Positions 23,022 to 24,509 of a stretch of DNA of 24,533 nt are shown here, one piece after another. The position numbers were made by a program, and so were the translations under genes. The stretch comes from Acidobacteriota bacterium (GTDB taxonomy: Bacteria > Acidobacteriota > Vicinamibacteria > Vicinamibacterales > JACQTH01), in NCBI GenBank assembly GCA_016210935.1, contig JACQTH010000583.1:1-24533 (forward strand), given 5' to 3'. The notes beneath the pieces are model-generated. The model did not search any database, was not told the DNA's origin, and worked only from the letters and a program-made list of their open reading frames with translations. Positions within the stretch are counted from its first letter, which is position 1. Each line of letters opens with the position of its first letter.

Positions 23022-23082
23022 GAAGGGTCTGCGTGATCAAACACGAAGATCTCGTGTTCACGACGAGGGCCGGAACCGTGTA

Positions 23083-23112
23083 ACCGTACTATGCGGCTGT
23101 CTGGAGGGTCAA
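23083..23112 (-). promoter_or_regulatory. Putative sigma70-type promoter of the gcvTHP operon
   Basis: Minus strand TTGACC-N18-TACGGT. Confidence 0.35.
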
Positions 23113-23144
23113 GGAAGGCCTGGAGCAGGCAGTGGGACACTGTC

Positions 23145-23190
23145 AAAAAAGATCCGGGCCCGGCGCGCGTTGGCACGACGGGCCCGTCGT
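23145..23190 (-). terminator. Possible intrinsic terminator after the 60-aa membrane protein gene
   Basis: GC-rich palindromes (CGGGCCC...GGGCCCG; perfect 16-mer ACGACGGGCCCGTCGT at 23175-23190) followed on minus by TTTTTT. Stem geometry is not canonical. Confidence 0.35.
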
Positions 23191-23212
23191 CTGGACGAGC
23201 CAACCCGGGAAT

Positions 23213-23395
23213 CTACCGGTTACGCCGACGCCACAGCACGTGACCCAGCGGAACGATCACGATGATGCCAATCCAGACCAGGATCGCGGTCACCGGACCG
23301 CGGAAGGCGTCCGGGGCAAACGGGATCGTCATCGACACGATCACCACACCGACGAACGCGCCAATCAAGGCGTCGGCCAGTAGACTCTTCAGCAT
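23213..23395 (-). CDS. Small 60-aa membrane protein, two TM helices and a basic C-terminal tail
   Basis: SD GGAGAA 5 nt before ATG; ALIGAFVGVVIVSMTIPF and VTAILVWIGIIVIVPLGHVLW followed by RRRNR. Confidence 0.7.
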   Translation of the reverse strand: MLKSLLADALIGAFVGVVIVSMTIPFAPDAFRGPVTAILVWIGIIVIVPLGHVLWRRRNR

Positions 23396-23416: not shown

Positions 23417-24169
23417 TCACCTGAGAGGAAGCGCACTGCAGGCCAGAAACGAAAACCAGGCCGAGTCGACCCACAGGAAGAACCGAAAGTTGCAGAGCTG
23501 CCACAGGACCCCTCGAATCCCCGTCAGCTCGTTGTGGCAGTTCCATAACTCGTCGTACGCGCGCATGACTTCGGCTTCCCAAGTCGAGTAGCAACTCTGG
23601 CCGAACTTCACACTGCTAATCGTCGGGGACGGCGGGCCGACCAACACCTTGCGAAATCTGTTGATGGTTGACTCGTCGCCCGCGAGCGAGCGCAGCAGCG
23701 CGTCCGTGATCATCAATTGCGTGTGCAGCGTCCTCTGTGGCACGCGGTCCAGCTCTCGCAGGACAGCGGTGTGAAACGCGCGTGCCACAGCCGAATCGTC
23801 AATGAGACGTTTCAGGGCGCCGATGGACGTGTGCGTGGCCTCAGCCATGGTGATTGTGACCGATCGGCCCCTGGCCGCGACGGTGATCGTCTTCGGATCG
23901 ACATCCACCTTGATGGCGTCCGAGCCATCGGTGATTCTGATCATGGTCGCGCCAGCGCTCTTCGTGTGTTTCGTGACTCGAAGCCGGTCCACACCCGCTT
24001 CGAACACGTACCCTCCATCCGCCACCGGCCGGAGCGCCATCGTCCAGTCCGGTGCCTTCGTTCGCGCCTTCGACTTTTGAGTCGCCCCTGTGTCACTCTG
24101 CACTCCCAGGAACACCACGACCGCCCCCAGCGCCAATCGCGGGAGCCTACCGCAGAAGAAGCGTGACAT
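23417..24169 (-). CDS. Uncharacterised exported protein (250 aa) with C-terminal C-x17-C-x14-C-x17-C domain
   Basis: Strong SD GAGGAGGAGG before ATG 24169; N-terminal basic plus hydrophobic segment (RLPRLALGAVVVFLGV); beta-rich then helical middle; aromatic four-Cys tail. The track's extension to 24364 runs into repeat DNA. Confidence 0.75.
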   Translation of the reverse strand: MSRFFCGRLPRLALGAVVVFLGVQSDTGATQKSKARTKAPDWTMALRPVADGGYVFEAGVDRLRVTKHTKSAGATMIRITDGSDAIKVDVDPKTITVAARGRSVTITMAEATHTSIGALKRLIDDSAVARAFHTAVLRELDRVPQRTLHTQLMITDALLRSLAGDESTINRFRKVLVGPPSPTISSVKFGQSCYSTWEAEVMRAYDELWNCHNELTGIRGVLWQLCNFRFFLWVDSAWFSFLACSALPLR

Positions 24170-24332: not shown

Positions 24333-24509
24333 CGCGTGGGGCCCCACCCCCACGCGTCTACCACCGCTCGCTCGATCGCTCGCGGCGCTCATTCGAAATA
24401 ACGATCCGCTTGGTGGAGCAGCTCCGAGTCGCAGTCCCCACCGCCTCCCACGGCTCGCTTGCGCTCGCCGCGATGAATTGACAGAACGATCCGCTTAGTG
24501 GATCACTCC
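24333..24509. repeat. Degenerate tandem repeat (78 and 74 nt units) preceded by a GC hairpin
   Basis: Units 24348-24425 and 24436-24509 align (CCCCAC...CCAC.GCTCGCT...CGCTCGC.GCG...AACGATCCGCTT.GTGGA.CA.CTCC). Hairpin CGCGTGGGG/CCCCACGCG at 24333-24356. Confidence 0.65.

Follow-up and report, generated by a model that had tools for sequence, protein, structure and literature searches.

An Exported Protein and a Small Membrane Protein Are Encoded Next to gcvT

The window (the whole stretch of DNA analyzed, 24,533 nucleotides, from a groundwater acidobacterium) carries on its minus strand a gene for a 250-residue protein (23417..24169), defined by its open reading frame and translation. The coding sequence spans 23420-24169 and is followed by a TGA stop codon at 23417-23419. 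The start is an ATG with a GAGGAGGAGG Shine-Dalgarno sequence upstream, and the resulting N terminus, MSRFF, is common to the protein and its nearest homologs. A longer open reading frame with a GTG start, reaching up to 24364, was rejected as the gene. Residues ~1-28 (24086..24169, minus strand) read as a Sec-type signal peptide, with a basic start, a hydrophobic core, and small residues. A hydrophobic h-region lies within the first 45 residues in 110 of 120 full-length members of the family described below, which agrees with the initial annotation of the DNA as encoding an exported protein. That annotation dealt with the end of the gene. Read on the minus strand, 23417-23593 runs from Cys193 through the stop codon of this one reading frame; the plus-strand translation of the same interval makes no sense. 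The C-x17-C-x14-C-x17-C pattern, the preceding GPPSPTISS linker, and the richness in W, F, and Y are present in the translation as first described. The four cysteines (residues 193, 211, 226, and 244) are encoded by TGC codons at 23591-23593, 23537-23539, 23492-23494, and 23438-23440.

A second gene starts 21 nt past the stop codon on the same strand (23213..23395). It has its own GGAG and encodes a 60-residue protein with two transmembrane (TM) helices, a Pro/Gly-rich loop, and a basic C-terminal tail. Just after it lies a GC-rich stem that ends in a U-run (23145..23214, minus strand; RNA fold −37.6 kcal/mol, z = −1.78). The stem is likely to be a terminator separating the gene pair from gcvT, despite not being called by a pattern scan. 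Downstream of it come a separate promoter-like region and then gcvT-gcvH-gcvP. In this region, a block at ~23030-23125 (minus strand), upstream of gcvT, shows TTGACC...TAGTAC promoter-like spacing and is conserved in relatives; it recurs as an identical pseudo-translation in three of the loci collected (L002, L003, and L017). Many bacteria have a glycine riboswitch before gcvT. A search of Rfam gave neither a glycine riboswitch nor any other RNA family here. Despite the conserved sigma-54 activator gene in the neighborhood, no convincing sigma-54 promoter was seen upstream of the family gene or of gcvT.

Predicted Structure of the Hairpin Protein

AlphaFold2, supplied with an alignment of 138 sequences, modeled the whole protein with a mean pLDDT of 84 and a pTM of 0.66. 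A beta region of seven strands (residues 43-107; 23849..24043, minus strand) and a four-helix region (residues 113-177; 23639..23833, minus strand), the latter with the conserved S126 and a conserved G164-D165 turn, are predicted with pLDDT values of 93-98. The linker that follows, GPPSPTISSVKFGQS (residues 178-192; 23594..23638, minus strand), has low confidence (pLDDT ~50). Its length and sequence vary across the family, where it is mostly Arg-rich, and the family alignment shows no conserved cleavage motif within it. The C-terminal module (residues 193-246; 23432..23593, minus strand) is predicted as two antiparallel helices, 193-214 and 220-246, joined by a loop (pLDDT 89-97). When the last 60 residues were modeled alone, the same antiparallel hairpin was obtained (pLDDT 93.6, pTM 0.74), indicating that the segment is an autonomous domain. 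The models thus reproduce the antiparallel helices proposed in the initial annotation.

The positions of the cysteines fit this arrangement. Residue numbers 193 and 244 sum to 437, as do 211 and 226, and with an antiparallel turn at ~217-218 this common sum means that both Cys pairs face each other. Because 18 residues correspond to five helical turns, both cysteines of a helix are placed on one face. Mutual information with APC correction gave 200-237 (sum 437) as the top inter-helix pair, with no enrichment of the expected register overall; support for the register therefore comes from AlphaFold2 and arithmetic.

Conservation within the protein is highest in helix 2. Helix 1 has one conserved stripe, which contains its cysteines (193, 197, 201, 204, 208, and 211). 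Helix 2 has two: a Cys-bearing stripe (226, 230, 234, 237, 241, and 244) and a second formed by E235, W238, F239, and L242, which suggests a contact of helix 2 beyond that with helix 1. The hairpin is ~20% aromatic and anionic, with a mean net charge of −3.6 and a charge of zero or below in 97% of members. In the protein studied here the hairpin domain has a pI of 5.0, and the mature protein is basic (net +7). Kyte-Doolittle hydropathy of helix 2 averages 0.67 across the family and reaches at most 1.46, below transmembrane values; the earlier description of this helix as very hydrophobic was overstated.

Foldseek searches with the full model (against PDB and BFVD) and with the hairpin (against PDB) returned nothing at E < 1e-3. 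The best hairpin matches were generic long hairpins (E ≥ 2.5, TM scores of 0.4-0.5). A sequence profile search of the PDB gave noise only, and the ESM Atlas gave unnamed Acidobacteriota clusters only, together with weak GGGtGRT-like scores for the hairpin.

A Vicinamibacterales-Specific Family with Four Invariant Cysteines

A phmmer search of 1.84 billion representative proteins identified 138 homologous clusters at E ≤ 1e-3. Nearly all are 230-300 residues long and align across residues ~40-250, so the ~250-residue architecture is uniform. In the 138-sequence alignment, identity to the query is 17-49%, and the four cysteines are the only invariant columns, a degree of conservation far beyond chance; S126, G164, and E235 are nearly invariant. 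The pattern C-x17-C-x(9-20)-C-x17-C occurs near the C terminus in 138 of 142 family matches. Both x17 spacings are constant and indels are confined to the loop (9-20 residues, mode 13), as a doubly stapled hairpin predicts. The mature chain has no further cysteine in 108 of 118 full-length members.

All named members are annotated as "hypothetical protein" and come from metagenome-assembled genomes (MAGs) of Vicinamibacterales or Acidobacteriota, with two exceptions by label: one matching genome record is assigned to Bifidobacteriaceae, and a short form (P0166, below) to Gemmatimonadaceae. Among 401 genomes of the phylum, convincing matches were confined to the window's own order, at one per genome, and the gene pair was found in 9 of ~50 sampled genomes of that order. 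Pfam gave no match to the query or to any of the 138 members at E values up to 0.1. Searches of Pfam, NCBIfam, PADLOC, and PHROGs produced nothing consistent for the protein, its relatives, or the small partner, bearing out the earlier remark that no named family could be recognized. One apparent match, a 1781-residue Gram-positive adhesin (P0104), was rejected as a beta-repeat artifact of its DUF11 repeats. A literature search for "Cx17C" brought up unrelated motifs only. Among ~170 members surveyed, neither paralogs nor domain shuffling were seen, apart from the one phage-borne short form; both had been put forward as checks of the initial annotation. The proteins constitute an undescribed, Vicinamibacterales-specific family.

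The family protein diverges quickly. Pairs of family proteins share a median of 22% identity; for gcvT at these loci the figure is 66%. Identities of the two correlate (rho 0.51), a pattern that vertical descent with fast divergence would produce.

Capacity for Disulfide Formation

The genome that contains the window also encodes, in one open reading frame, a fusion of VKOR with a DsbA-type thioredoxin-like domain (C487:3797-4927), and four relatives encode the same fusion. The periplasm of these organisms can therefore be expected to make disulfides. Given the modeled register, two disulfides most likely staple the hairpin after export, C193-C244 at its open end and C211-C226 beside the loop. 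A few degenerate sequences have lost cysteines: L016 retains the second and third, P0122 the first and third, and P0132 the third only. We considered pairwise Cys loss as evidence on connectivity and rejected it, as the cysteines of these f8-like sequences do not consistently disappear in the predicted pairs.

The Small Partner Gene Accompanies the Hairpin Gene

Loci were judged assessable for the partner gene if they had an intact Cys motif and sufficient downstream sequence (n = 29). In 28 of these, a homologous two-TM open reading frame of 59-95 residues lies directly downstream, and its start often overlaps the stop codon of the family gene, by 4-31 nt. A TM1 motif, hydrophobic-G-x-L-L-A-G, is common to the small proteins, and the loop often contains (R/G)-G-P. 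At two loci (L020 in genome G208 and L023 in G168), the partner is replaced by a 4-TM protein of 132-143 residues, apparently two two-TM units fused in tandem. A holin identity for the partner was dropped; the match of the window's small protein to Phage_holin_2 was weak (E 1e-3, below the cut-off) and did not recur in ten homologs.

The only exception among the assessable loci is P0066 (L038/L039, from a Vicinamibacterales MAG), which keeps the four cysteines and has no partner gene. This protein is altered at two positions of the second helix 2 stripe, E235 to Q and W238 to Y. Divergent P0066 is also relocated: its gene lies between genes for an Hpt-like protein and a response regulator on one side and a convergent PAS hybrid histidine kinase on the other. 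The Cys motif has decayed at three loci (L016, L021, and L022), and the small gene is missing from all three. This co-loss may be a single event, since the three belong to one taxonomic family (f8). At two of these loci (L021 and L022, genus g15), a different secreted protein of ~180-250 residues is encoded in the usual place of the small gene, and gcvT lies beyond ~4 kb of other DNA.

Genomic Context and a Phage-Borne Short Form

The order of genes at the locus (GspH-like pseudopilin, PilZ-like protein, sigma-54 activator, family gene, small TM gene, gcvTHP) holds in genome and metagenome loci at family-protein identities of just 20-30%. The family gene is single-copy and occupies a fixed chromosomal site between the sigma-54 activator gene and gcvTHP. 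In five family-negative genomes of the order, both genes are absent and the activator gene abuts gcvT. The clean absence, with this junction, means that the pair behaves as a two-gene presence/absence cassette.

The genes on the activator side form a cluster of their own. In L002, L029, L036, and others it encodes a ComEA-like HHH protein, a GspH/FimT-like pseudopilin, a PilZ-like protein, and the sigma-54 activator, which has a 150-residue N-domain without assignment. The cluster precedes the cassette, or gcvT where the cassette is absent, and may be linked to competence or pili.

A profile search identified one protein, P0166, that consists of a signal peptide and the hairpin only (135 residues). 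A 58-residue two-TM open reading frame overlaps its stop codon. The locus (L043) is a 5.5-kb phage-like contig that also encodes an HNH endonuclease, an Erf-like recombinase, and further PHROG families. P0166 is the only short form among the ~170 members surveyed, and it indicates that the unit of hairpin and small partner can ride on a phage. As this contig keeps just the signal peptide, the hairpin, and the small partner, hairpin plus partner is the minimal conserved unit. A word-index search for stand-alone hairpin proteins of 33-105 residues found none, with a sensitivity limited enough that known fragments were also missed, and a scan of IMG/VR for stand-alone hairpins found none either.

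A Putative Docking Module for the Two-TM Protein

We tentatively favor, at somewhat less than an even chance, a reading in which a periplasmic protein uses its stapled hairpin to dock the co-translated two-TM protein. The protein would be exported by Sec to the periplasm, where its last 54 residues would form an autonomous antiparallel alpha-hairpin, hanging by the flexible linker from the folded beta/alpha domain. The VKOR-thioredoxin system of the cell would form C193-C244 and C211-C226. The Cys-bearing face of helix 2 would pack on helix 1, leaving its other face (E235, W238, F239, and L242) free for another binding partner. The hairpin may thus serve as a rigid aromatic docking module, with the 60-residue inner-membrane protein as its target and a membrane-tethered periplasmic complex as the outcome. 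A possible parallel is offered by twin-Cx9C hairpins such as Cox19, whose conserved hydrophobic face binds the membrane-anchored Cox11 (PMC4571295). In keeping with docking, the sole member away from the partner gene, P0066, is the one altered at E235 and W238. The pairing at 28 of 29 loci, the missing partner at the three loci with a decayed Cys motif, the joint absence of both genes from five family-negative genomes, and the minimal phage-borne pair also speak for it. Against it, P0066 keeps its four cysteines without a partner gene, and the partner exposes a periplasmic loop of only ~10 residues to a hairpin of 54. The co-loss may be a single event, mutual information gave no overall enrichment of the helix-helix register, and degenerate sequences do not shed their cysteines neatly in the predicted pairs. 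An alternative use of the second helix 2 face would be dimerization or packing on the basic N-domain of the same chain.

A bacteriocin-like toxin-immunity pair seems unlikely but deserves serious consideration. The exported protein, or its hairpin, would damage the membranes of competing or unprotected cells, with the two-TM protein as the immunity factor. In favor of such a pair are the small membrane protein gene immediately downstream, often translationally coupled, the accessory status of the pair within the order (present in 9 of ~50 genomes, missing from others as a clean two-gene indel), and the coincidence of Cys-motif decay with loss of the partner. The rapid evolution of the larger protein (22% median identity against 66% for gcvT) would also fit, as would the minimal pair beside HNH and Erf genes on a phage-like contig, a setting in which moron cargo is often found. 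The properties of the hairpin, however, argue otherwise: it is anionic, its helix 2 falls below transmembrane hydropathy, and it shows the strongest conservation within the protein, not the greatest variability. A single copy of the gene occupies one fixed chromosomal site, and the gene's divergence tracks that of a housekeeping neighbor. Genes for transport, proteolysis, secretion, or regulation of the kind usual at bacteriocin loci are absent from the neighborhood, neither PADLOC nor Pfam gave a toxin match, and Sec export by itself reaches the periplasm only.

Much of this evidence bears on the functional half of the initial annotation, which had envisaged a membrane-active peptide carried on a larger pro- or carrier domain. 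That half finds no support: neither charge nor hydropathy suits it, the N-domain is conserved, has a confidently predicted fold, and does not resemble a leader, paralogs, shuffling, and transport or processing genes are lacking, and the locus is fixed. The structural half, comprising the hairpin fold and its register, stands.

We are doubtful that the hairpin is a self-contained module and the small protein a mere neighbor. Here the second face of helix 2 would drive formation of a four-helix-bundle dimer, or the acidic hairpin would pack on the basic N-domain, with autoinhibition or stabilization as the result. The opposite charges of the mature protein (net +7) and the hairpin (pI 5.0), the two conserved faces on helix 2, and the retention of the Cys motif by P0066 without a partner gene are all compatible with this proposal. 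It is at odds with the very consistent pairing with the small gene, including overlapping stop and start codons, among sequences that are ~20% identical, and with the phage-borne form, which lacks the N-domain and still has its small partner.

More speculatively, and with rather low probability, the hairpin and the two-TM micro-protein could be a self-sufficient, phage-transferable envelope module. The hairpin would be a Sec-exported, disulfide-stapled effector that perturbs the inner membrane or blocks something there, the micro-protein its receptor, anchor, or immunity factor, and the larger Vicinamibacterales proteins domesticated versions with an added periplasmic domain.

It is very improbable that the protein is a precursor, the idea behind the initial annotation, in which cleavage at the linker sets the hairpin free as a stable, disulfide-rich peptide, in the manner of plant alpha-hairpinins, which come from signal-peptide-bearing precursors (PMC7191063). 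The flexible, low-confidence, often Arg-rich linker and the autonomous folding of the hairpin in the models would suit such a scheme, and P0166 is a natural form made of signal peptide and hairpin. Yet the linker is without a conserved cleavage motif, the N-domain is modeled with pLDDT values of 93-98 and contains its own conserved motifs, the locus has no linked protease gene, and the search for stand-alone hairpins of 33-105 residues, within its limited sensitivity, gave none.

Finally, we give little credence to the four cysteines acting as metal or cofactor ligands or as a redox switch instead of as structural disulfides: four invariant cysteines could in principle be ligands and twin-CxnC proteins can be redox-regulated (PMC4571295), but CxxC and CxxCH motifs are absent, the protein is exported in a cell with a VKOR oxidase, and the predicted Cys pairs are 18 residues, or ~27 Å, apart along the helices, too far to share one site.

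Comparison with Known Hairpin and Two-Gene Systems

Among the closest known designs is that of twin-Cx9C (CHCH) proteins, which contain C1-C4 and C2-C3 disulfides and use a conserved hydrophobic or aromatic face to bind partners that include inner-membrane proteins (PMC4571295). Like Cox17, Cox19, and the Mia40 substrates, the hairpin described here is a predicted helix-loop-helix with one CxnC per helix, the two cysteines of each helix on one face, and a presumed location in an oxidizing compartment. It differs in spacing (x17 in 138 of 142 members, in contrast to x9), in having helices about twice as long, and in belonging to a bacterial, Sec-exported, presumably VKOR-oxidized protein; CHCH proteins reside in the mitochondrial intermembrane space and are oxidized by Mia40. 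Neither the query nor any of the 138 members matched the CHCH entry PF06747 (E up to 0.1), and no CHCH structure was present among the Foldseek matches. We thus regard the resemblance as analogy rather than homology.

Alpha-hairpinins have the Cys motif CX3C-Xn-CX3C and are short, usually basic peptides. The hairpin described here departs from this motif (x17/x17, 54 residues, mean charge −3.6). Plant alpha-hairpinins are four-Cys helix-loop-helix peptides with a signal peptide that are cut from larger precursors (PMC7191063 and PMC11591084). They are short and often arranged in tandem cassettes, whereas the bacterial module is single, anionic, and without signs of processing.

Exported proteins paired with adjacent membrane proteins provide a second set of comparisons. 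In Bacillus subtilis, SdpC is a Sec-exported, Cys-containing precursor of ~200 residues encoded alongside the membrane immunity protein SdpI. SdpC gives rise to a hydrophobic internal peptide; SdpI spans the membrane several times and also acts in signaling. The likeness lies in an exported Cys protein and an adjacent membrane-protein gene; no sequence or profile similarity was found in Pfam, NCBIfam, or PADLOC. The resemblance to bacteriocin/immunity pairs in general is likewise formal, consisting of the adjacent small membrane-protein gene at 28 of 29 loci. The cationic amphipathic or strongly hydrophobic segment of bacteriocins is absent (charge of zero or below in 97% of members, helix 2 mean hydropathy 0.67), and so are linked export, processing, or regulatory genes and a patchy, mobile, or multi-copy distribution, with one phage-like exception. 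The top Foldseek matches of the hairpin, the receptor-binding domains of colicins E2 and E3, also have two long antiparallel helices of similar length; these hairpins lack disulfides, and the match is not significant (E ≥ 2.5, TM scores of 0.4-0.5), reflecting generic helical geometry only. PEP-CTERM-like C-terminal sorting signals are a poor comparison, as NCBIfam gave no match and helix 2 has a conserved Glu and hydropathy below that of a transmembrane segment.

Helix-loop-helix modules stapled by disulfides are familiar from mitochondria (twin Cx9C and twin Cx3C) and from plant defense peptides. The family and the fold of its N-domain are undescribed; the hairpin, with its x17 spacing, bacterial origin, and Sec/VKOR route, is a variation on the known design. 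It places the predicted stapled architecture in the bacterial envelope with a different, strictly kept ruler of 17 intervening residues (five helical turns), on a protein without recognizable relatives or a PDB fold match. Vicinamibacterales are represented in public data mostly by metagenome-assembled genomes. In this order the genes for an exported hairpin protein and a micro-membrane-protein now define a clean two-gene unit. It offers a testable way to study small membrane proteins, few of which have known partners. Were docking correct, the unit would be a compact model of how a stapled hairpin recognizes a two-TM partner. A toxin-immunity function would make it a new kind of Sec-dependent antibacterial module, and a phage-transferable module would represent a new bacterial class of disulfide-hairpin effectors, the prokaryotic counterpart of alpha-hairpinins and twin-CxnC proteins. 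Under docking and toxin-immunity alike, the family merits a domain-of-unknown-function entry.

Sequence Reads and Repeats at the Contig End

Reads of the sequence were found in DNA runs of groundwater metagenomes only. Upstream of the hairpin gene, at the end of the contig, are two copies of a 44-nt direct repeat (24377-24420 and 24462-24505) that are 80% identical and 85 nt apart; relatives have the sigma-54 activator gene at this position. The 12-mer core of the repeat, AAGCGGATCGTT, also occurs once in the relative L002, far from the family gene, and so looks like part of a dispersed short repeat. Such a repeat may have caused the contig to break at this point.
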